Counted from the first letter of the stretch, positions 2,859-41,414 are shown. The stretch: DNA of 45,139 bases from a virus (IMGVR_UViG_2713897161_000005); one strand, 5' to 3'. Program-made: numbers and translations. The notes: a model not told the origin generated them from the sequence alone.

Positions 2859-3606
2859 NNNNNNNNNNNNNNNNNNNNNNNNNNNNNNNNNNNNNNNNNN
2901 NNNNNNNNNNNNNNNNNNNNNNNNNNNNNNNNNNNNNNNNNNNNNNNNNNNNNNNNNNNNNNNNNNNNNNNNNNNNNNNNNNNNNNNNNNNNNNNNNNNN
3001 NNNNNNNNNNNNNNNNNNNNNNNNNNNNNNNNNNNNNNNNNNNNNNNNNNNNNNNNNNNNNNNNNNNNNNNNNNNNNNNNNNNNNNNNNNNNNNNNNNNN
3101 NNNNNNNNNNNNNNNNNNNNNNNNNNNNNNNNNNNNNNNNNNNNNNNNNNNNNNNNNNNNNNNNNNNNNNNNNNNNNNNNNNNNNNNNNNNNNNNNNNNN
3201 NNNNNNNNNNNNNNNNNNNNNNNNNNNNNNNNNNNNNNNNNNNNNNNNNNNNNNNNNNNNNNNNNNNNNNNNNNNNNNNNNNNNNNNNNNNNNNNNNNNN
3301 NNNNNNNNNNNNNNNNNNNNNNNNNNNNNNNNNNNNNNNNNNNNNNNNNNNNNNNNNNNNNNNNNNNNNNNNNNNNNNNNNNNNNNNNNNNNNNNNNNNN
3401 NNNNNNNNNNNNNNNNNNNNNNNNNNNNNNNNNNNNNNNNNNNNNNNNNNNNNNNNNNNNNNNNNNNNNNNNNNNNNNNNNNNNNNNNNNNNNNNNNNNN
3501 NNNNNNNNNNNNNNNNNNNNNNNNNNNNNNNNNNNNNNNNNNNNNNNNNNNNNNNNNNNNNNNNNNNNNNNNNNNNNNNNNNNNNNNNNNNNNNNNNNNN
3601 NNNNNN
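2859..3606. other. N-run (748 nt, unresolved or masked sequence)
   Basis: Continuous n characters; ORFs crossing it are artefacts. Confidence 0.99.
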
Positions 3607-28678: not shown

Positions 28679-29560
28679 NNNNNNNNNNNNNNNNNNNNNN
28701 NNNNNNNNNNNNNNNNNNNNNNNNNNNNNNNNNNNNNNNNNNNNNNNNNNNNNNNNNNNNNNNNNNNNNNNNNNNNNNNNNNNNNNNNNNNNNNNNNNNN
28801 NNNNNNNNNNNNNNNNNNNNNNNNNNNNNNNNNNNNNNNNNNNNNNNNNNNNNNNNNNNNNNNNNNNNNNNNNNNNNNNNNNNNNNNNNNNNNNNNNNNN
28901 NNNNNNNNNNNNNNNNNNNNNNNNNNNNNNNNNNNNNNNNNNNNNNNNNNNNNNNNNNNNNNNNNNNNNNNNNNNNNNNNNNNNNNNNNNNNNNNNNNNN
29001 NNNNNNNNNNNNNNNNNNNNNNNNNNNNNNNNNNNNNNNNNNNNNNNNNNNNNNNNNNNNNNNNNNNNNNNNNNNNNNNNNNNNNNNNNNNNNNNNNNNN
29101 NNNNNNNNNNNNNNNNNNNNNNNNNNNNNNNNNNNNNNNNNNNNNNNNNNNNNNNNNNNNNNNNNNNNNNNNNNNNNNNNNNNNNNNNNNNNNNNNNNNN
29201 NNNNNNNNNNNNNNNNNNNNNNNNNNNNNNNNNNNNNNNNNNNNNNNNNNNNNNNNNNNNNNNNNNNNNNNNNNNNNNNNNNNNNNNNNNNNNNNNNNNN
29301 NNNNNNNNNNNNNNNNNNNNNNNNNNNNNNNNNNNNNNNNNNNNNNNNNNNNNNNNNNNNNNNNNNNNNNNNNNNNNNNNNNNNNNNNNNNNNNNNNNNN
29401 NNNNNNNNNNNNNNNNNNNNNNNNNNNNNNNNNNNNNNNNNNNNNNNNNNNNNNNNNNNNNNNNNNNNNNNNNNNNNNNNNNNNNNNNNNNNNNNNNNNN
29501 NNNNNNNNNNNNNNNNNNNNNNNNNNNNNNNNNNNNNNNNNNNNNNNNNNNNNNNNNNNN
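28679..29560. other. N-run (882 nt, unresolved or masked) between the lysis cassette and packaging genes
   Basis: Continuous n characters; ORFs crossing it are artefacts. Confidence 0.99.
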
Positions 29561-32901: not shown

Positions 32902-33070
32902 CGTCTTCTTCCTCGTACATTGAGCTATTCGGATCGCTCATCAGTTCTGCGCAGCAATCGGAGCACACGTGAACTTCCAGCACATGCAGTTTCTGACCGC
33001 AGTTAGCGCACGTTAAAGCCCGCTCGACGCTTTCTTTCTGGTATTGAAGGGATTGGGATGGGCTAAGCAT
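32894..33070 (-). CDS. ninF: NinF (58 aa, Cys-rich)
   Basis: Uncalled ORF: [58 protein letters not shown]; matches lambda NinF from memory; ATG overlaps the upstream stop. Confidence 0.6.
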   Translation of the reverse strand: MLSPSQSLQYQKESVERALTCANCGQKLHVLEVHVCSDCCAELMSDPNSSMYEEEDDE

Positions 33071-33435
33071 TATTGGATTCTCTGCATCATGAGAAAGACA
33101 ATCATGGCGGCGCGAAGGGGATTTTTATGTATAGCTCGCTTAGATTTACAGTAGGCCACACCACGTGCACCCCACTCGTCTTCATCGAGATTGATAATGC
33201 TAATCCTGTATTTTTCAATAATCGGCCATGAGTCTGCTGGGTTTGCGCATGGGTTAAAGGATCCGCGCTCAACTTCTACTTCAACTGCGTCTCCGTTTAC
33301 AATGTCTCCCTCAAATGAGACAAACACCATATCGCCATTCTCACCTTCTTTGTAATCCGGTGATCCGTTATGAATGGCTTCGAATACCGCCACGTTAATT
33401 TCAAAATCACTTAACTGTGAATAATCCATTGTCAT
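33070..33435 (-). CDS. Hypothetical nin-region protein (~120 aa)
   Basis: Start at ATG 33435 (MTMDYSQ...) or 33429, overlapping the NinE stop; the track's longer version is rejected. Confidence 0.4.
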
Positions 33436-33608
33436 TTCCTCGCACGATGTCTTAGCCACCGGATATCCCACAGGTGAGCCGTGTAGTTGAAGGTTTTTAC
33501 GTCAGATTCTTTTGGGATTGGCTTGCGTTTATTTCTGGAGCGTTTCGTTGGAAGGTATTTGCAGTTTTCGCAGATTATGTCGGTGATACTTCGTCGCTGT
33601 CGCCTCAT
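33432..33608 (-). CDS. ninE: NinE (58 aa)
   Basis: [58 protein letters not shown]; start overlaps the methylase stop (ATGA); matches lambda NinE from memory. Confidence 0.6.
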
Positions 33609-34080
33609 GCCGCCCTCCTGACGCCCTGCCCGATCGCCATCAATGCCGCTTTGGATACGGTAGTAAACATCCGTCGAGGACTGATGAACGGTCGCCAAAT
33701 CAGCAGCATGGAGCCTTTGCTGTTCCCCTTCTTCTCCAGCCCTGTCGATGGTTCGATAAAATTAATCCGTCCATCAGTGATGATGCGAACTTCGTCAACA
33801 CTCTCCAGAGCCTTGCTGAACCATCCGACTGACATATCCTCTGGCACAAGCATAACTACCGTCTGTCGCTGTTGTATGCACTGCTCAGCGGCTTTTTCCA
33901 CCCACGGCCTGATATTGCTGTACGGTGGGTTATTCCAGATTGCACCGTGACTTACCCACTCAGAATTGAGCGCGTCGTCGGCCTCAGTTAGCCAGTGAGC
34001 GCACAGAGCATTTTTGTCGCTCGCAGCTGAATCCAGCCAGAATCCAAACTCAATATCCAGTGCATCAAAAAGCCAAAGCG
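33605..34080 (-). CDS. DNA N6-adenine methyltransferase (phage Dam-type), C-terminal fragment
   Basis: Visible C-terminal 158 aa contains the N6-MTase motif NPPY (…[14 protein letters not shown]…); 5' part lost in the N-run. Confidence 0.6.
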
Positions 34081-34720
34081 NNNNNNNNNNNNNNNNNNNN
34101 NNNNNNNNNNNNNNNNNNNNNNNNNNNNNNNNNNNNNNNNNNNNNNNNNNNNNNNNNNNNNNNNNNNNNNNNNNNNNNNNNNNNNNNNNNNNNNNNNNNN
34201 NNNNNNNNNNNNNNNNNNNNNNNNNNNNNNNNNNNNNNNNNNNNNNNNNNNNNNNNNNNNNNNNNNNNNNNNNNNNNNNNNNNNNNNNNNNNNNNNNNNN
34301 NNNNNNNNNNNNNNNNNNNNNNNNNNNNNNNNNNNNNNNNNNNNNNNNNNNNNNNNNNNNNNNNNNNNNNNNNNNNNNNNNNNNNNNNNNNNNNNNNNNN
34401 NNNNNNNNNNNNNNNNNNNNNNNNNNNNNNNNNNNNNNNNNNNNNNNNNNNNNNNNNNNNNNNNNNNNNNNNNNNNNNNNNNNNNNNNNNNNNNNNNNNN
34501 NNNNNNNNNNNNNNNNNNNNNNNNNNNNNNNNNNNNNNNNNNNNNNNNNNNNNNNNNNNNNNNNNNNNNNNNNNNNNNNNNNNNNNNNNNNNNNNNNNNN
34601 NNNNNNNNNNNNNNNNNNNNNNNNNNNNNNNNNNNNNNNNNNNNNNNNNNNNNNNNNNNNNNNNNNNNNNNNNNNNNNNNNNNNNNNNNNNNNNNNNNNN
34701 NNNNNNNNNNNNNNNNNNNN
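34081..34720. other. N-run (640 nt, unresolved or masked) inside the nin region
   Basis: Continuous n characters. Confidence 0.99.
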
Positions 34721-35157
34721 ATCCCTTTTCGTTGTGACCATTCATACTCTCTCCGGGAGTCATCGCTCCACCGCACGTTGCGCTCTGAGCCGAACCAGAA
34801 CATGATTTCGATAAGCTCAGTCATGCTGGCCTTTCGCATTTTGCTGGTACGCACGCCAAGCATGACAACGCCACCGTCGATACCAGGCACACTTCGTTGC
34901 TCTAGTTTTTTGGTCTTAAGCCACAGGGCAGTGAACAGGTCTTTCCAGTCTTCCGGTTCCAGCCGTTGACCATGCCATAGCACCTGACGCGAAACATCGT
35001 TCAGCATCGGCCACATACGGTCATTCTGCGCTTTGCTGCGTTTGGGTTCTCTAACGTGGACTTCGTGAGGTGACTTGTCGTCGATGGGAAGTGAGAGTAT
35101 TGCGTCTATGGCGTTGTTTCTGATTTCTTCGTTGCGAAGCATGTATATTTGCTTCAT
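34721..35157 (-). CDS. ninB: NinB recombination protein (3' end runs into the N-run)
   Basis: 145 visible aa (MKQIYMLRNEEIRNNAIDAI...DVSRQVLWHGQRLEPEDWK...) match the lambda NinB pattern. Confidence 0.7.
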
Positions 35158-35159
35158 CG

Positions 35160-35444
35160 TTACTCCTTCACTTTGATTCCAGCGGCGCGGATGGATTCAT
35201 CGATATCGTCACGGTCGTACACAGCAATAGCATCACTGACAAACCATACAGGCAACTCAATTTCAATAGCTGCTCGCGATGCCTGCCACGTTTGCCAGTG
35301 GCCTTGAACATCGTCCATCACGTATTGACCACCAATATCACCACTGCCAATTTCATGGTGATTTTCAGGATAACGGATAAGTTCTGATGATTCGCCTCCA
35401 CGTCGCAACCAACTTTCTTCAAACTGCTTTCTTGATTCGTCCAT
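35160..35444 (-). CDS. Hypothetical protein (94 aa)
   Basis: ORF coupled upstream of ninB. Confidence 0.4.
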   Translation of the reverse strand: MDESRKQFEESWLRRGGESSELIRYPENHHEIGSGDIGGQYVMDDVQGHWQTWQASRAAIEIELPVWFVSDAIAVYDRDDIDESIRAAGIKVKE

Positions 35445-35461
35445 CGATACTTACCCTCAGT

Positions 35462-35668
35462 TCAACTCACAAAACGCCACGCCATTTTTGCTACAGCGAC
35501 AGGCATAACACCGATAATCACCCACAGGAAAATGCTACCGAAAAGCACACCCACCAGGTCTTTACCTTCGCCTACCAACCGGACAAAACAGCCAGCAACC
35601 ACAATGAACGTCGCCACCATCCACAGAGCACCGAGAAGCCTCAATGCAGAGAAAATCAACTCAACCAC
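35462..35668 (-). CDS. Small membrane protein (68 aa, two predicted TM helices)
   Basis: Hydrophobic ORF; GTG start with GGGGAGAG upstream. Confidence 0.4.
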   Translation of the reverse strand: MVELIFSALRLLGALWMVATFIVVAGCFVRLVGEGKDLVGVLFGSIFLWVIIGVMPVAVAKMAWRFVS

Positions 35669-35683
35669 GATTTACTCTCCCCC

Positions 35684-35715
35684 AAATAAAAAGGCCTGCG
35701 ATTACCAGCAGGCCT
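35684..35715 (-). terminator. Candidate intrinsic terminator downstream of the primase-helicase gene
   Basis: Perfect 8-bp stem AGGCCUGC/GCAGGCCU with 8-nt loop, followed by UUUUAUUU on the minus strand; overlaps a possible 27-aa ORF. Confidence 0.4.
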
Positions 35716-35744
35716 GTTATTAGCTCAGTGATGTAGATGGTCAT

Positions 35745-37625
35745 TTAATACTCCGTCACGTTTTCCTGTCGCCACGCCTCGTCATATTCCGATTTCGGCA
35801 TATTGGCGATGTAGCTATATGGAGATCCTGATTCAAGTTGCAGGAACTGGTGCGATTGCTCGTCAAGGAACAACGGGACACCACCTTCCCAACCTTCGCC
35901 GTTACGTTGTTTTTCGAGCATTAAAACAGATGCCGGAGATGCCAGTAGCTGTTCGTCCTTCTCTGACATCTTTTCACCACTCTGAACTCTCTGTAACGCT
36001 CTCTCGCGAGCCTTGTTACGCCAGATGATGAAAAGGTTGTCTGTCAGGTCTGTTATCGCTCCAGAGCCTTTTACGTCCATTTTCCCGGTTGGTTTTTCTT
36101 CGCTGTCTCCTTTTCGCGAGTGAGTAACGAGAATGACGTGGGAGTTTGTTTTGTTTTTGAAGTCACAAATCGAGTCAACAAATGCTTTCTGCCCGTTATA
36201 GTCATCGTCGCCTATGCCACATTTCATCAGGCTGTCGATGATGAATAACTGGATCCCGTATCGGCGGCGAGCGTAGTCGAATATTTCGATCAGCCTGTCG
36301 GCTTTCGCCGTTCCGGTCAGGCCAAACACCCAAAGTCTTTCGTCATAAAATTTAAATGCAGAGTCAATTTCCAGCACTGGCGGCATCTTGCAGCACGTCG
36401 CCTGACGGGTAAGGCGCTTAAGGAGAATACCAGGCTTCAGCTCAAGTGACGCGATGCACGTCTTCACACCCTGACGCATTGCCTCAAGTGCCATATGCCC
36501 GACAACCTCCGTTTTTCCGTGACCGTTCACACCATTGACCAGCGTCAACTCTGCCTCACGGAACTGGAATTTATCTGCCAGAGATTCCCACGGTGGATTA
36601 AACAGATACTGCTGCTTGCCGTAGAAAGCGTTGATAGTGTCCTGGTAAAACTCTCGCGCGCTGTAGAGTTCTTCAGGATCGAAGTAGGATGCCGTGCCGA
36701 TGTACTGCCAGATTTCATCCTCGGTAACACCGTTCATCAGGCATTCGTTGATGTCCTTGTACGGCAGAGTAACAAGACGGCAACGATGTTCACCGAGTCG
36801 GCTTGCGATTTCCCTTGCGGCTTCACGACCAACATCATCAACGTCCATCGAGATGAATATTTCCTCAAACCTGTCGAGGTTGTGATACTCAAACTCAATC
36901 CACTGTTGCTTAGCGCCTTTCCCGCCACCAAACGGCACGGATAACGCCGAGATGCCGTATTGCGCATAGCTCATACAATCAATTTCGCCTTCGCAAAGTA
37001 CAACCGCCCTCACGCCAGCGTCCAGAGCCTGCCATCCGAACAGACAAGGTTCGCAATCACCTTCTGCCATAATGACTTTCTTCCCGTCCGGGCGCTCAGT
37101 GCTGATTCGCTTGACCTGCAACAACTCACCATCGCGTTTGTACGGAATCACCAGAGCATCCAGTTCTCGCTCTCCATTCCACACCTTGCCGCTGACAACC
37201 TCGTAGCGCTTTACGATTTCTGGAGATATGCCACGCGATTGCAGGTACTCAAGATGGGATTCTGTTCTGGTAACGTAGCGGGCGATTTTCTTGCGGTCAG
37301 GTCTGGAGAATTTCTTCTCACGTCTGGCATCGAAATGGTGATCGTCATCCTTGATACCGAGAAATGCTTTCGCTTCCTGCATAGCCTGATGCAGGTTAAT
37401 CCCACGACATGCCATCCACAAATCAAGCATGTCACCGCCGTCTCCCTCAGCGAAATCAGCCCATTTTTTCTTGCCGCTAAGGTTGACCTTAAGGCTGTTT
37501 CCCTTGTCACCGTTGACGTTACCGGCAACCCACTCATGCCCCTCTTTTTTGCCGTTTGGCAACAGGTGCGGAGCCACCCTGTCAACCTGCGACCAAAGCA
37601 GGTCGCTGAGTTCACTTGGCGTCAT
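35745..37625 (-). CDS. Replicative primase-helicase (Toprim-like N-terminal half, DnaB-like ATPase C-terminal half)
   Basis: 626 aa; Walker A GVNGHGKT in the C-terminal half; occupies the lambda P position downstream of O. Confidence 0.65.
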   Translation of the reverse strand: MTPSELSDLLWSQVDRVAPHLLPNGKKEGHEWVAGNVNGDKGNSLKVNLSGKKKWADFAEGDGGDMLDLWMACRGINLHQAMQEAKAFLGIKDDDHHFDARREKKFSRPDRKKIARYVTRTESHLEYLQSRGISPEIVKRYEVVSGKVWNGERELDALVIPYKRDGELLQVKRISTERPDGKKVIMAEGDCEPCLFGWQALDAGVRAVVLCEGEIDCMSYAQYGISALSVPFGGGKGAKQQWIEFEYHNLDRFEEIFISMDVDDVGREAAREIASRLGEHRCRLVTLPYKDINECLMNGVTEDEIWQYIGTASYFDPEELYSAREFYQDTINAFYGKQQYLFNPPWESLADKFQFREAELTLVNGVNGHGKTEVVGHMALEAMRQGVKTCIASLELKPGILLKRLTRQATCCKMPPVLEIDSAFKFYDERLWVFGLTGTAKADRLIEIFDYARRRYGIQLFIIDSLMKCGIGDDDYNGQKAFVDSICDFKNKTNSHVILVTHSRKGDSEEKPTGKMDVKGSGAITDLTDNLFIIWRNKARERALQRVQSGEKMSEKDEQLLASPASVLMLEKQRNGEGWEGGVPLFLDEQSHQFLQLESGSPYSYIANMPKSEYDEAWRQENVTEY

Positions 37626-37729
37626 GATTCCCTCAGATTGAGATTTTTAAACCAGAAATCGACAAACGAAATACTTAACCAGCCGTGGTTATAACCAGCG
37701 ACCAGTAGCGATTTGATTTTTGATTTCAT
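37622..37729 (-). CDS. Small ORF (35 aa) translationally coupled between O and the helicase
   Basis: Uncalled: MKSKIKSLLVAGYNHGWLSISFVDFWFKNLNLRES; AGGTGA RBS; stop overlaps helicase ATG (ATGA); starts 3 nt after the O stop. Confidence 0.3.
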   Translation of the reverse strand: MKSKIKSLLVAGYNHGWLSISFVDFWFKNLNLRES

Positions 37730-37732
37730 GGT

Positions 37733-38593
37733 TCACCTGTCGAAAAACACGTAGCCAGTTTTCGATACGGTGATTGCGGATGATGGTTTGGATTGTGGTT
37801 GAATAGTTTCTGGCTTCTCGTCGTTCCAGCGTTGACCGTTCAGGTAGCTCGATGGTAACAACCTGTCGAATCCGAACTGCTTACCATTCCTGCATGCGAT
37901 GTCTTCTGCCAGCATCGTGGCAAATTCGCTTGCCGTACCCCTGGTAGTTTTACGCCATTCCCTGAACTGTGTTCTGAATGCCGAAGCCGCGTTTTTCTTC
38001 CCGGCTTTCCGCATGCCTGCACACCAGAATATTTCCTCGAATGCCTTGTCGGTTTCTTCGTGACGGTCAGATGATTTTTCACACTCCGTCCGAACACTTT
38101 CGGACATAGTGTTTTTATTATTTCTTTTTTCTTTTGTAATAGTTTCTTTTGTGTGTCCCTGTTTTGGTGACAGCGCTGTCACCGTTTTGGTGACACTTTT
38201 TGTCACCAATGCAGTGACATTATCACCAGAGTAGTGACACCCTTCGATTTGCCATTCCTCGATGTTCTTGTTAGGCCCGATTTGCTGGCCTTCGCGAAGG
38301 ATAACCTTCATCGCGATAAGCTCATTCTTGGCCTTGTTTACCTTCTGTCTTGGCAGCCTGGTAATTTGAGCTAACTGACTATCAGAGATGCGGTCCATCT
38401 TTTTACCGTAGCCGTATGTTTTACGGCATATGGCGTGGGCAACCTTGCTCTGATTTTTCGTTAAATCTGCGCCGATAAGCTCTTCATACAGGGCATTTGC
38501 AAGACGGGTATAACCATCTTCAACTTCTGCCACACGACGCTCCACAGGCCGTTGTGAAGGCCTTAAATGTGTTACGGTTGCAAGATTACTCAT
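37733..38593 (-). CDS. O: Replication initiator O
   Basis: 286 aa; N-terminal ...[49 protein letters not shown]... matches lambda O; iterons inside the gene. Confidence 0.75.
38111..38242. repeat. Replication origin: iteron array with adjacent A/T-rich stretch, inside O
   Basis: Dyad repeats GGTGACAGCGCTGTCACC (38166-83), GGTGACActttttGTCACC (38189-207), AGTGACAttaTCACC (38213-27), AGTGACACC (38233-42); A/T-rich 38111-38151. Confidence 0.6.
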
Positions 38594-38732
38594 GACCTTT
38601 CTCCTTCTGCATCAGCTTCACTTTTTCCAACTCAGCCCGGAATCGACCAGGCTGCTTGAAGCTGGACAAGAAGCGATCACGTAGTATGTGTTTGTGAATT
38701 TTGTCCTGGTAAGGACTGAGTTGTTTTGTCAT
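38586..38732 (-). CDS. Small ORF (48 aa) between cII and O
   Basis: Uncalled: [48 protein letters not shown]; AGGAG RBS 5 nt upstream; 3' end overlaps the O start. Confidence 0.35.
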
Positions 38733-38766
38733 AATGACTCCTGTGGATTGATCCAGTCTTTCTACA

Positions 38767-39045
38767 TCAGGCCTCGAAGAATTCGCCGTTCTTCGGGGCT
38801 TTTTCTTTTGTCAGCATTCTGGCTACTTTCTTAGCCAGTTCCGCCAACTCCTCGTCTTCAACACCCCACTCAAGAACAGCCAGAAGCATTCCCATTTTGG
38901 GGATGAAGCTGTCTTTCCATCGCGAAATTTGCGATTCATTAATCCCTAACGCGTCGGCAACCTTTCGCTGACCACGTACAGCAATTCGATTCAGGATGTT
39001 GCTTGTAATTGCATTCGCTTTCTTGCGAGTACTTGTAAGTTCCAT
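38767..39045 (-). CDS. cII: Transcriptional activator CII
   Basis: 92 aa from ATG 39045: ...[34 protein letters not shown]... matches lambda CII; the track's longer start would include nutR. Confidence 0.75.
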
Positions 39046-39078
39046 ATGTAAGTATTTCCTTAACAAATAAGAAGTTAT

Positions 39079-39096
39079 GCGCATCAACTTATGCGC
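39079..39096 (-). terminator. Hairpin between nutR and cII (tR1 position)
   Basis: 6-bp stem GCGCAU/AUGCGC with 6-nt loop, followed by moderately U-rich sequence; position analogous to lambda tR1. Confidence 0.3.
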
Positions 39097-39103
39097 GTTG
39101 TAT

Positions 39104-39146
39104 TCCCGCATTTCGGCGGGAATGAGGACCATGACTGTTAAAGAGC
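39104..39146 (-). promoter_or_regulatory. nutR (boxA GCTCTTTAACA + boxB hairpin)
   Basis: Minus strand: boxA at 39136-39146, 7 nt after the cro stop; boxB UCCCGC-CGAAAU-GCGGGA at 39104-39121. Both elements identical to those in the PL leader. Confidence 0.65.
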
Positions 39147-39153
39147 AATTTGC

Positions 39154-39339
39154 TTATGCCGCTTTGCGGTAAGCGCTTTCTTGATACTTCAGGGCGCCAG
39201 CTGTAACGACTTCCAGTCGATAGGCGTCTTTCTCTGGGATGACTTCCTTCCACTGAGAGACTGCTGCGTCGCTAATGCCTAACGCTTTAGCTACAGCACG
39301 CTGGGTTCCGAAGTGGTCGATAACATCTTTCTTGTACAT
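39154..39339 (-). CDS. cro: Cro-like repressor (HTH)
   Basis: 61 aa; HTH-like GTQRAVAKALGISDAAVSQW; divergent from cI. Confidence 0.7.
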   Translation of the reverse strand: MYKKDVIDHFGTQRAVAKALGISDAAVSQWKEVIPEKDAYRLEVVTAGALKYQESAYRKAA

Positions 39340-39363
39340 AGACTCGCTCCGAAATTAAAGAAC

Positions 39364-39419
39364 ACTTAAATTATCCACTAAAGGAATCTTAAGTCAAGTT
39401 TATTTAAGATGTCTTAACT
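39364..39419. promoter_or_regulatory. OR/PR/PRM region between cro and cI
   Basis: TTAA-centred operator-like motifs (ACTTAAAT 39364-71, TCTTAAGT 39387-94, ATTTAAGA 39402-09, TCTTAACT 39412-19); PR candidate on minus strand TTGACT (39392-97), 16 bp, GATAAT (39370-75). Confidence 0.5.
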
Positions 39420-40070
39420 ATGAAAACTCAATTGATGGGAGAGCGCATTCGCGCTCGGAGAAAAGAACTCAAGATCAGACAGGCCGCACTTGGAAAGATG
39501 GTCGGCGTGTCTAATGTTGCCATATCTCAGTGGGAACGCTCTGAGACAGAGCCAAATGGAGAGAATCTTCTCGCCCTGGCTAATGCGTTGAAGTGTTCCC
39601 CTGACTATCTGATGAAAGGAGAGGAAAGTCTTTCAAACATTGCCTATCACAGTAGGCATGATCCAAGAGGGTCATACCCTCTGATTAGCTGGGTGAGCGC
39701 AGGATGCTGGATGGAAGCTGTAGAACCATATCATAAGCGTGCAATAGATAACTGGTACGATACAACCGTAGACTGTTCAGAAGATTCGTTTTGGTTGGAC
39801 GTGAAGGGAGACTCAATGACGGCTCCGGCCGGTCTCAGTATCCCTGAAGGAATGATAATACTCGTAGATCCTGAAGTAGAGCCGCGTAACGGGAAACTGG
39901 TAGTTGCAAAGCTCGAAGGAGAAAACGAGGCAACTTTCAAGAAGTTAGTTATTGATGCAGGCAGGAAGTTTCTAAAACCACTTAACCCACAATATCCGAT
40001 GATCGAGATCAACGGAAACTGCAAAATCATCGGCGTAGTTGTCGATGCAAAACTAGCAAACCTTCCATAA
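39420..40070 (+). CDS. cI: CI-type prophage repressor (HTH + S24 LexA-like peptidase domain)
   Basis: 216 aa; N-terminal HTH (IRQAALGKMVGVSNVAISQWER); C-terminal ...GDSMTAP... serine-peptidase-like region; divergent from cro. Confidence 0.8.
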   Translation: MKTQLMGERIRARRKELKIRQAALGKMVGVSNVAISQWERSETEPNGENLLALANALKCSPDYLMKGEESLSNIAYHSRHDPRGSYPLISWVSAGCWMEAVEPYHKRAIDNWYDTTVDCSEDSFWLDVKGDSMTAPAGLSIPEGMIILVDPEVEPRNGKLVVAKLEGENEATFKKLVIDAGRKFLKPLNPQYPMIEINGNCKIIGVVVDAKLANLP

Positions 40071-40093
40071 GGGGGCATTCGCCCCTTTTTTTT
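40071..40093 (+). terminator. Intrinsic terminator immediately after cI
   Basis: GGGGGC-AUUC-GCCCC hairpin followed by T8. Confidence 0.6.
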
Positions 40094-40117
40094 ATTTCCC
40101 TTAAAAATCAAAGCCAA

Positions 40118-40194
40118 ACTTAAGTTACGAAAGAAAATTTAAGTTTTCTTCAAAAATACTCTTGACCATTAATTAAAGAGATCTTAAATTTAAG
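40118..40194 (+). promoter_or_regulatory. OL/PL region
   Basis: Operator-like palindromes ACTTAAGT (40118-25), ATTTAAGT (40137-44), CTTAAATTTAAG (40183-94); PL candidate TTGACC (40162-67), 17 bp, TAAATT (40185-90). Confidence 0.5.
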
Positions 40195-40236
40195 CCATCA
40201 GCAGGACGCTGGTAGCCAAACGGAACAGATTGGCAG

Positions 40237-40277
40237 GCTCTTTAACATTGATGGGATTGTCCCGCCGAAATGCGGGA
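40237..40277 (+). promoter_or_regulatory. nutL (boxA GCTCTTTAACA + boxB hairpin)
   Basis: boxA at 40237-40247, 12-nt spacer, boxB UCCCGCCGAAAUGCGGGA at 40260-40277; identical to the nutR copies. Confidence 0.65.
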
Positions 40278-40635
40278 ACTGAGTTTAACCAAACAGGAGG
40301 TGCCGTAATGGTGCACTAACGCGGTTAGACCGCAGCCGAAAGGCAATGCAGCAGTAATGATGCTGCCCCGAGTCGCGTAATGGCGAGCAGGTTTAGCAGA
40401 CCGATGTGAGGGTAAATAAGGGAACATGCTCCGGAAAGGCAGCGCGAATGCCAGACGCGCACCGGTTATCAGCGGCTAATAAGCGACAGAGGCTCAAGGG
40501 CATGAGCGCGCTCACTGCGAGAGTGTGAGTCAAAGAGTAGTTGGCTTTGGGGTAACGTGAAGTGCAGCTGCACGACGGCAACCGGAAGATAAGCACCCGG
40601 CGCGTCACCGCCAAAGTCAATCATCGGAGGTCAAC

Positions 40636-40935
40636 ATGACAGTAGTCATTACATATCTGGCTGACGATAACGCCAGAAATCGCCGCAGAGCACGCAGACA
40701 GGCTCAACGTGAACAGGCAATGCAAGAGCAGCGACTGGCGCGAAAAATTGCGCTAAAGCTCTCTGGTTGCGTCAGAGCAGATAAAGCAGCATCACTCGGA
40801 AGCCTTCGCTGCAAGAAGGCAGAAGAAGTCGAGCGTAAACAGAACCGTATTTACTACCGCAAGCCACGCAGTGAAATGGGTGTGACTTGTGTTGGTCGCC
40901 AGAAAATGAAATTAGGCAGCAAACCACTTATTTGA
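40636..40935 (+). CDS. N: Antiterminator N
   Basis: 99 aa; arginine-rich motif NARNRRRARRQAQ near the N-terminus; C-terminus ...YYRKPRSEMGVTCVGRQKMKLGSKPLI parallels lambda N; GGAGG RBS. Confidence 0.75.
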   Translation: MTVVITYLADDNARNRRRARRQAQREQAMQEQRLARKIALKLSGCVRADKAASLGSLRCKKAEEVERKQNRIYYRKPRSEMGVTCVGRQKMKLGSKPLI

Positions 40936-40943
40936 GGTGAGAT

Positions 40944-41414
40944 ATGACAAAATCATGGAGCGTACCTTTTCCTGAATCAGAAACTGAACATGATGGAATG
41001 CCTGTTTTCTGGAGATTCCAGGCGACAGTTGAAGAAGATGGGATAAAAATATTCGCACTTCAATATATAGCTTTTCATCAGACAGAGCATTATGCATGGT
41101 TGGTTCCTGCGCATTGGATTATTGATTATAAACCAGCACCAAATCAGTGGTTACGGGAATGGAAACAAAGGAGAAATAGATATGCAATTAAGAAAGTAGC
41201 AAAAAATGCAGAAAGATCTTTTGCATTCCCAACAAAGAAACTTGCCATTGAGAGTTTATTGCGCCGGAAGAAATACCATTTAATGAGAATCAAACAAGAT
41301 TTGGCTGTTGTATCAACTCTTGTCGATGGGATGAAGAATATTGATACATCAACACCAGATATTGAATATAACTTTGGACACAACCAAGAAACAGAAAATT
41401 GGGTATTCTACTAG
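40944..41414 (+). CDS. Hypothetical accessory protein (156 aa), AT-rich, immediately after N
   Basis: GAGGTGAG RBS; followed directly by an intrinsic terminator; no recognisable motif. Confidence 0.45.
   Translation: MTKSWSVPFPESETEHDGMPVFWRFQATVEEDGIKIFALQYIAFHQTEHYAWLVPAHWIIDYKPAPNQWLREWKQRRNRYAIKKVAKNAERSFAFPTKKLAIESLLRRKKYHLMRIKQDLAVVSTLVDGMKNIDTSTPDIEYNFGHNQETENWVFY

Follow-up and report, generated by a model that had tools for sequence, protein, structure and literature searches.

The viral sequence IMGVR_UViG_2713897161_000005 (45,139 nucleotides; the window, below, means this whole stretch of DNA) carries three open reading frames (ORFs) of fewer than 50 codons in its replication region, and these ORFs are the subject of this report. 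The genome is that of a lambdoid, P22-like phage (Lederbergvirus/Stx-phage type) with its early-right (pR) operon on the minus strand, in the order cII, orf48, O, orf35, primase/helicase, ninA (containing the terminator tR2), orf68 and then the nin genes. This gene order is shared with the closest DNA matches, which are vB_EcoP-720R6, mEp043, Sf101, SEN22 and Stx2a phages. An earlier note, made from the sequence alone, had proposed the three small ORFs, the first with a ribosome-binding site (RBS) and the second translationally coupled to its neighbours; all three were located on the minus strand at the coordinates it gave, and the quoted peptides matched the ORF listing. Each of the three starts carries a Shine-Dalgarno motif, and each stop abuts or overlaps the following start. 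The ORFs are probably genuine, translationally coupled cistrons of the lambdoid pR operon, with ninA serving as a relay around tR2. None of them is undescribed, as orf48 and ninA are already known from P22 and the 35-amino acid (aa) ORF is known as gp60 in ES18, with entries in Pfam and PHROGs. The value of the result lies mainly in annotation: three lambdoid replication-region ORFs of fewer than 50 codons are conserved cistrons, and what looked like a membrane peptide arises when a textbook terminator is translated. The principal features are as follows.

38738-38742, minus strand: AGGAG Shine-Dalgarno of the 48-aa ORF, part of the conserved block ACAGGAGTCATTATGACAAA
38586-38732, minus strand: 48-aa ORF (orf48), equivalent to P22 orf48 and HK620 hkaW; Pfam DUF2740 (PF10872), PHROG 1913
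37733-38593, minus strand: O, replication initiator
37622-37729, minus strand: 35-aa ORF (orf35), equivalent to ES18 gp60, epsilon34 gp51 and g341c gp46; PHROG 21848, motif LL(V/I)AGYNHG
35745-37625, minus strand: bifunctional primase/helicase, 626 aa, with Toprim_2 and AAA_25 domains, T7 gp4/Twinkle type
35661-35744, minus strand: ninA, 27 aa, MTIYITELITGLLVIAGLFIWGRVNRG; PHROG 5907, identified by identity to lambda and P22
35684-35715, minus strand: intrinsic terminator tR2, with stem-loop AGGCCTGC-TGGTAATC-GCAGGCCT (35715-35692) and U-tract TTTTATTT (35691-35684)
35462-35668, minus strand: 68-aa hydrophobic ORF (orf68), PHROG 1165, with a GTG start and the Shine-Dalgarno GGGGGAGAG directly after the tR2 U-tract

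The 48-aa ORF lies between cII and O behind an AGGAG RBS, as had been proposed, with 5 nt separating AGGAG from the ATG. Its TAA stop sits 8 nt inside O, within ATGAGTAA, and the block ACAGGAGTCATTATGACAAA that holds its RBS and ATG corresponds to the start of lambda gene O in an alignment of lambda, P22 and an Erwinia phage. A Pfam search with four peptides matched orf48 alone (PF10872, 99.4 bits against a cut-off of 27, E = 8.9e-29, with the full-length profile covered), and an NCBIfam search with the same four peptides gave no match. The encoded protein is basic; its identity is 100% to HK620 hkaW and to its counterparts in HK022 and mEp043, and 85% to P22 orf48. Homologues named 'DUF2740 family protein' at NCBI occur in Escherichia, Salmonella, Citrobacter, Klebsiella and Pluralibacter. 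P22 orf48, HK620 hkaW and HK022 orf48 also lie between the oop promoter and O and overlap O by the same 8 nt, and no material difference separates that family from the ORF in the window. A cII-oop-'orf'-O layout has likewise been described by Hayes et al. (PMC3349717).

Several comparisons point to selection on the orf48 protein. The ratio of nonsynonymous to synonymous substitution rates (dN/dS) was 0.28-0.35 against P22 and Erwinia phage Midgardsormr38; in the latter, all 48 codons are retained at 58% identity and a dS of about 1.2. Polymorphisms comprised 7 synonymous changes over 28 sites and 10 nonsynonymous changes over 113 sites. The invariant residues H13, K14, I16, R18, D19, R20, L22, A33-K37 and K39 are central, lying between the overlapping regulatory elements at either end. 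Judged by these substitution patterns, orf48 is under purifying selection and its coding constraint is real. AlphaFold2 predicted a two-helix hairpin for the protein, with a predicted local distance difference test score (pLDDT) of 80. Foldseek searches with the predicted structures of the small ORFs found nothing in the PDB, and all matches in BFVD had E > 1; no mention of DUF2740 was found in the literature. From its position, the gene may contribute to the initiation of replication or to the cII/oop decision.

The slot between cII/oop and O was always occupied by a small ORF overlapping the O start by about 8-14 nt, and the families that fill it differ: DUF2740, a 53-aa ORF of the HK97 gp53 type in ES18 and g341c that is unrelated to orf48, a 58-aa ORF in Proteus that resembles DUF2740, and, in Pragia, a 50-aa ORF of unrelated sequence. 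The loci compared for this slot were L382 (1357-1533), L383 (1387-1539) and L002 (938-1099). The Proteus prophage ORF, which has the motif HKNIMRDK and a C-terminus ending in SHE, is on sequence likely to be a distant relative of orf48 in the same slot. Homologues of DUF2740/orf48 are labelled 'tail protein' in PHROG 1913 and in RefSeq (NC_019706, NC_002730, NC_027398, NC_070949). Given the position of the family in the replication module, between cII/oop and O, it is very unlikely to be a tail protein, and the label appears to be a propagated misannotation.

The coupling described in the earlier note for the 35-aa ORF was found at both of its ends. The O stop and the orf35 start are arranged as TGA-ACC-ATG, a gap of 3 nt with the Shine-Dalgarno AGGTGA, and the orf35 stop shares ATGA with the helicase ATG. 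PHROG 21848 was matched with E = 4.4e-26. A tblastn search against phages placed the ORF in 42 records, 23 of them at 90-100% identity (97% for ES18 gp60) and 16 at 71%, an allele found in epsilon34 gp51, g341c gp46 and several Stx2a phages; three weaker matches stood at about 50%. One of these weaker matches is in SaltyDalty, where the ORF again has 35 aa and is flanked by an O-like gene and the primase/helicase, with 54% identity for the small protein and 60% for the helicase. ES18 gp60, epsilon34 gp51 and g341c gp46 are also 35 aa long and fill the same slot between O and primase/helicase, with no structural difference from the ORF in the window. AlphaFold2 returned a single helix (pLDDT 81) from the single orf35 sequence, which is uninformative.

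When the motif AGYNHG-x-(L/F) was back-translated and searched for in IMG/VR, 89 matches were obtained, of which 86 fell in small ORFs, mostly of 35 aa and none above 70 aa as counted from the first in-frame start. Pooled, the orf35 loci comprised 63 distinct DNA sequences encoding 40 distinct peptides, all of 35 codons. Column entropy summed by codon position was 24.5, 14.8 and 37.5, with the third position the most variable, and the median ratio of nonsynonymous to synonymous differences per site (pN/pS) was 0.36. Between the two main alleles, dN/dS was 0.28 at a dS of 0.69, and the other two frames were closed. Outside the scan motif, K6, L9, F22, F27, L32 and R33 were invariant in the 40 peptides. 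A primase/helicase homologue lies directly 3' of orf35 in all representatives with downstream sequence, except two with a small inserted ORF. Upstream, all 214 proteins grouped by similarity into a single O-like cluster, with direct matches to the O of the window for 171 of them; as all upstream genes belong to this one cluster, linkage of orf35 to O could not be separated from linkage to the helicase. The predicted helical protein is encoded between the conserved C-terminal part of O and the primase/helicase, the gene that it accompanies throughout. The sequence comparisons indicate that the 35-aa ORF is a real, conserved microprotein, and probably a partner of the helicase or of O.

Gene callers often miss this ORF. 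It is uncalled in the RefSeq records of mEp043, Sf101 and SEN22, the Prokaryotic Genome Annotation Pipeline leaves it uncalled in the listed E. coli RefSeq genomes, and uncalled 35-aa homologues lie in the O-helicase gap of Proteus mirabilis and Pragia fontium prophages. Among complete E. coli genomes, about 4% (217 of 5426) carry the orf35 sequence, and the ORF also occurs in Salmonella, Klebsiella, Proteus and Pragia prophages. Two variants of the arrangement were observed. In L295 and L326, an ORF of about 170 aa (MMSSELDEFIPGYEGKYSVTKDGRVYSH...), HNH/homing-endonuclease-like by eye, lies between the 35-aa ORF and the usual primase/helicase start. In L310, L315 and L371, the orf35 frame is open for 29 codons further upstream (MVHTIWRWNSGG...), giving a 64-aa frame, which probably reflects an upstream in-frame start, with the conserved 35-aa unit beginning at an internal Met (Ile in L371).

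These patterns bear on two simpler explanations. The three ORFs could in principle be untranslated frames that happen to be open between genes, given their shortness and their frequent omission by gene callers. However, a check for loss of reading frame, which the earlier note had put forward as a possible refutation, found the frame and exact length of the 48-aa and 35-aa ORFs kept in divergent relatives at a dN/dS of about 0.3, with third codon positions the most variable. With a Shine-Dalgarno at every ORF start and reporter evidence for the NinA start as well, chance open frames are scarcely credible. A second explanation holds that orf48 and orf35 are mere translational couplers or spacers whose peptides have no function. 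Both overlap the next start and carry its Shine-Dalgarno, lambda manages without orf48 (PMC3349717), and neither ORF has a homologue of known function. Against this stand the invariant orf35 residues K6, L9, A11-G16, F22 and F27 over 40 peptides, in a gene whose synonymous sites are saturated (proportion of synonymous differences, pS, of 0.8 against SaltyDalty), and the run of invariant central residues in orf48 at a dN/dS of about 0.3. This conservation far exceeds the needs of coupling, and a purely spacing role for the two ORFs is very unlikely.

The 27-aa ORF begins at the helicase stop, as the earlier note had it: the TAA abuts the ATG (TAA-ATG, 35747-35742), with GGAG 6 nt upstream of the ATG. 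At its other end, the TGA stop overlaps the GTG of the 68-aa ORF in GTGGTTGA (35668-35661). PHROG 5907 was matched with E = 1.3e-18, and by sequence identity the ORF is ninA, a gene named in 1982. The hairpin that overlaps it, which the note had suggested might be a terminator, is lambda tR2. A terminator scan identified an 8-bp stem with 6 GC pairs, an 8-nt loop and then TTTTATTT, and structure prediction agreed. The hairpin begins 30 nt after the ninA ATG and has the AGGCCTGC/GCAGGCCT stem and TGGTAATC loop followed by UUUUUAUUU; positions 35715-35684 are identical to lambda. Its position is also that of tR2: it lies downstream of nutR in the pR operon, where the replication genes end and the nin region has yet to begin. 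Between ren and ninB, lambda reads ATGACCATCTACAT(T/C)ACTGAGCTAATAACAGGCCTGCTGGTAATCGCAGGCCTTTTTATTTGGGGGAGAG, and from the ninA ATG through GGGGGAGAG the window is the same as lambda save for one synonymous ATC/ATT change. The tR2 oligonucleotide aacaggcctgctggtaatcgcaggcctttttatt in the supplement of Li et al., Nucleic Acids Research 2016 (PMC4824070) matches the window, and the same paper, citing Kroger & Hobom 1982 and Liu et al. 2013, places tR2 30 bp after the NinA AUG. In the curated P22 record, ninA is annotated with the terminator inside it; Sf101, epsilon34 and ES18 annotate the ORF as NinA or NinA-like, with ES18 gp63 described as 'similar to P22 NinA'.

Like its lambda counterpart, the ninA/tR2 unit in the window forms the boundary between replication and nin genes, with a stop overlapping the next start and a hairpin 30 nt after the AUG. 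The neighbours differ. Upstream lies the primase/helicase here (TAA, then ATG) compared to ren in lambda and gene 12 in P22, and downstream lies the 68-aa hydrophobic ORF with its GTG start compared to ninB in lambda. Residues 1-22 of NinA are identical to lambda and P22 NinA, whereas the last five residues differ (VNRG-stop here, GKS-stop in lambda) because the downstream gene differs.

The behaviour of ninA across relatives was followed in about 200 IMG/VR loci with the ninA 5' end, 191 of which had enough flank for both junctions; these are highly redundant prophage copies, and the counts overstate their independence. In the 191 loci, the ninA ATG adjoins seven unrelated upstream gene ends (as TAA|ATG, ATGA or TGATG), each of which supplies a GGAG-like motif 9-14 nt before the ATG. 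On the downstream side, ninA is followed by 12 unrelated genes in different loci; for 10 of these the start codon is no more than 8 nt from the ninA stop, and the other two overlap ninA by 14 and 23 nt. The peptide is less well kept. Among 176 tR2-type loci there were 11 synonymous and 19 nonsynonymous distinct variants (17.3 and 45.7 sites, respectively; ratio about 0.65), with Leu13-to-Gln, a change of a loop nucleotide, recurring in 9 loci and Trp21-to-Leu in 5. Three of five stem variants stay paired through G-U, and the two that break pairing are singletons. Natural lesions include frameshifts in the T/G runs (L003, L100, L128, L152), a lost start (ATG to ATA, L081) and premature stops (L164, L181). 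These variants suggest that constraint on the NinA peptide is weak and that start/stop coupling is what is conserved.

The first 32 nt of ninA are joined to three or four unrelated continuations, with the frame open in all of them, which places a mosaic junction inside ninA at codon 11. The continuations comprise the tR2 hairpin, another hairpin of 10 bp with U6 (class B; L017 and others) and an AT-rich unstructured stretch (class C; L016, L033, L070, L071, L169). The class B frame has a grand average of hydropathy (GRAVY) of +0.10. Class C is without a hairpin (z +0.44) and adjoins an HNH-like gene, and it keeps a 34-aa hydrophobic ORF with a GRAVY of +1.01. As decisive proof of a functional NinA peptide, class C was considered and set aside, given only about 23 extra open codons, their AT-rich composition, the HNH-like neighbour and the frameshift in L033. 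In a separate count, the 96-nt ninA/tR2 segment was present in 2060 of 5426 complete E. coli genomes, at up to 6 copies per genome. Few short conserved modules of lambdoid prophages are so widespread, and the segment could provide a linker for recombination between the replication and nin modules.

The earlier note had seen in the 27-aa ORF the size and composition of a small membrane toxin-like peptide, and it is possible to read NinA as a functional membrane-active peptide, toxin-like or otherwise, whose overlap with a terminator is secondary. Its GRAVY is +1.14, its hydrophobic run of about 19 residues is followed by a basic tail, and a lambda reporter gives evidence that the ORF is translated (PMC4824070). 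In addition, classes B and C keep the ORF with a different hairpin or with none, although only class C is strongly hydrophobic and class B weakly so. However, the core GLLVIAGLFIW is precisely what in-frame translation of the tR2 stem, loop, stem and U-tract yields (GGC CTG CTG GTA ATC GCA GGC CTT TTT ATT TGG), and the peptide is hydrophobic because the stem and U-tract are translated in this frame. The nonsynonymous/synonymous ratio, the recurrent Leu13 and Trp21 substitutions and the natural T/G-run frameshifts described above also speak against it, as does a C-terminal tail that varies with every downstream gene; the tail of class C may be incidental, as its neighbour appears to be an inserted HNH-type gene. 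Phages carrying the nin5 deletion are viable. In lambda, this deletion takes out ren and ninA-ninI (PMC3349717), which counts against this reading.

The type I toxins Hok, TisB, Ibs and Ldr share with NinA a length below 50 aa and a hydrophobic core. In contrast to them, NinA has no antisense RNA or promoter of its own, lies in mid-operon, shows weak constraint and a neighbour-dependent tail, and owes its composition to a terminator. A consensus scan found no promoter-like site on the plus strand near 35600-35800, although weak promoters can escape such a scan; no type I antisense or small RNA was found at ninA, where there was also no Rfam match. The combination of purifying selection with a conserved transmembrane segment, taken as a mark of a type I toxin, was not found for NinA. 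The toxin reading of the 27-aa ORF is not supported, and a membrane-active NinA of any kind is improbable. A real small membrane protein in the region, if there is one, is more plausibly encoded by the strongly hydrophobic 68-aa ORF than by ninA; two alleles of that ORF differ at about 70 of the 207 nt.

For the lambda tR2 sequence, to which the terminator here is identical, termination by E. coli RNA polymerase and its override by N have been shown in the literature. The NinA initiation site was described as 'not weak' in a lambda reporter, and tR2 efficiency was maximal once the upstream stop codon was more than 27 nt away (PMC4824070); in the window, this distance is 29 nt. We suggest that the first 29 nt of ninA would place tR2 just beyond the footprint of a ribosome stopped on the upstream gene. 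With the hairpin outside this footprint, unmodified RNA polymerase could therefore terminate at tR2. N-modified polymerase would read through, and ribosomes would reinitiate at the ninA ATG, translate across the hairpin and stop on the start codon of the next gene, so that translation of the nin genes would stay coupled. The NinA peptide itself would be a probable by-product.

The same reporter work bears on the alternative that ninA is a leader peptide, in which reinitiating ribosomes melt tR2 and tune read-through into nin and Q by coupling translation to transcription. In that work, tR2 was almost fully repressed if a translated gene ended a few bp upstream, and partly repressed inside a long coding region (PMC4824070). 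As the native ninA ATG overlaps or abuts the upstream stop, a reinitiating ribosome may already trail the polymerase closely. However, silencing the NinA RBS or AUG shifted tR2 efficiency by only about 10%, in a construct lacking the natural stop-start overlap (PMC4824070), and N antitermination, for which nutR is present, already accounts for read-through. Attenuation by ninA translation is unlikely, and less likely than the helicase-cofactor reading of orf35 discussed below.

At the upstream end of the operon segment, orf48 would start at what is the translation start of O in lambda and pass ribosomes to O through the 8-nt overlap. For orf35, the most likely role would be that of an accessory subunit or adaptor that recruits or loads the phage helicase at the O-origin complex, standing in for the role of P toward DnaB in lambda; we infer this from its linkage, coupling and co-divergence with its neighbours. 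The fuller version of this proposal, in which orf35 is a dedicated cofactor of the T7 gp4/Twinkle-type primase-helicase that serves as adaptor to the C-terminal domain of O at the origin and replaces lambda P, is tentative and on balance doubtful. If it were true, it would explain how O-type initiators recruit a helicase other than DnaB, and orf35 would be a replication factor that has been overlooked and left unstudied because gene callers routinely skip it. The remaining biological interest lies in the two conserved microproteins, DUF2740/orf48 at the cII-oop-O junction and the 35-aa protein linked to the primase-helicase.

However, it is also important to note several points that count against reading the three ORFs as coupled cistrons with ninA as a relay. 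The proposal that ninA codons 1-10 insulate tR2 as a spacer draws on reporter data from a different context. Translation of orf48 and orf35 in this phage is suggested by their conservation and RBSs, and their functions by gene position; the predicted structures are generic helices without fold matches. The redundancy of the IMG/VR loci, noted above, also weighs here. In class C, the hydrophobic ORF is retained without the hairpin, and the peptide itself could matter. Finally, conservation at the GHE end of orf48 may concern the nucleotides, which carry the RBS or start of the next gene, and not the amino acids, and the same may apply to L32-R33 of orf35, whose codons carry the helicase Shine-Dalgarno.

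Further features of the surrounding region are listed below.

39420-40070, plus strand: cI, placed from the sequence layout
39154-39339, minus strand: cro, in the early-right operon
39103-39147, minus strand: nutR, with boxA TGCTCTTTAACA (39147-39136) and a boxB hairpin TTCCCGCCGAAATGCGGGAA (39122-39103)
38767, minus strand: 3' end of cII, in the early-right operon
38154-38239, within O: origin iterons of about 19-20 nt, TGTCACC...GGTGACA
38743-38811 (5' end approximate), plus strand: predicted oop-like antisense RNA, from a terminator scan, fold and P22 match
38730-38735, plus strand: CATAAT, putative -10 hexamer of the oop promoter pO, assigned by homology (P22 annotation and alignment)

The nutR assignment is based on resemblance, and N-type antitermination at this site would override tR2; nutR is annotated at the equivalent position in P22 and ES18. 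Three runs of N occur in the window, at 2859-3606 (748 bases), 28679-29560 (882) and 34081-34720 (640), and the last of these cuts into two ORFs that lie shortly beyond the studied region on its downstream side, one ninB-like and one for a DNA methylase. An Rfam scan of 33000-41000 (E <= 1) gave a single match, to Mu-gpT-DE (20 bits against a 49-bit cut-off), which is attributable to chance; no Rfam family matched oop.

Opposite the start of orf48, CATAAT is the reverse complement of the ATTATG at which the ORF begins, and the P22 record likewise has the oop promoter overlapping the orf48 start. The terminator of the oop-like RNA is a 14-bp hairpin at 38769-38801 followed by a U-run to 38811, overlapping the 3' end of cII. 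The RNA folds at -29.5 kcal/mol (z -4.2), and positions 38746-38775 reproduce without mismatch the initial 30 nt of P22 oop RNA as sequenced (PMC13397905). In lambda, oop RNA and pO are arranged in the same way, with an antisense transcript, a strong terminator over the cII 3' end and a -10 in the conserved block upstream of O or orf48. There the block runs directly into O, whereas here, as in P22, orf48 is interposed and its first codons overlap pO.

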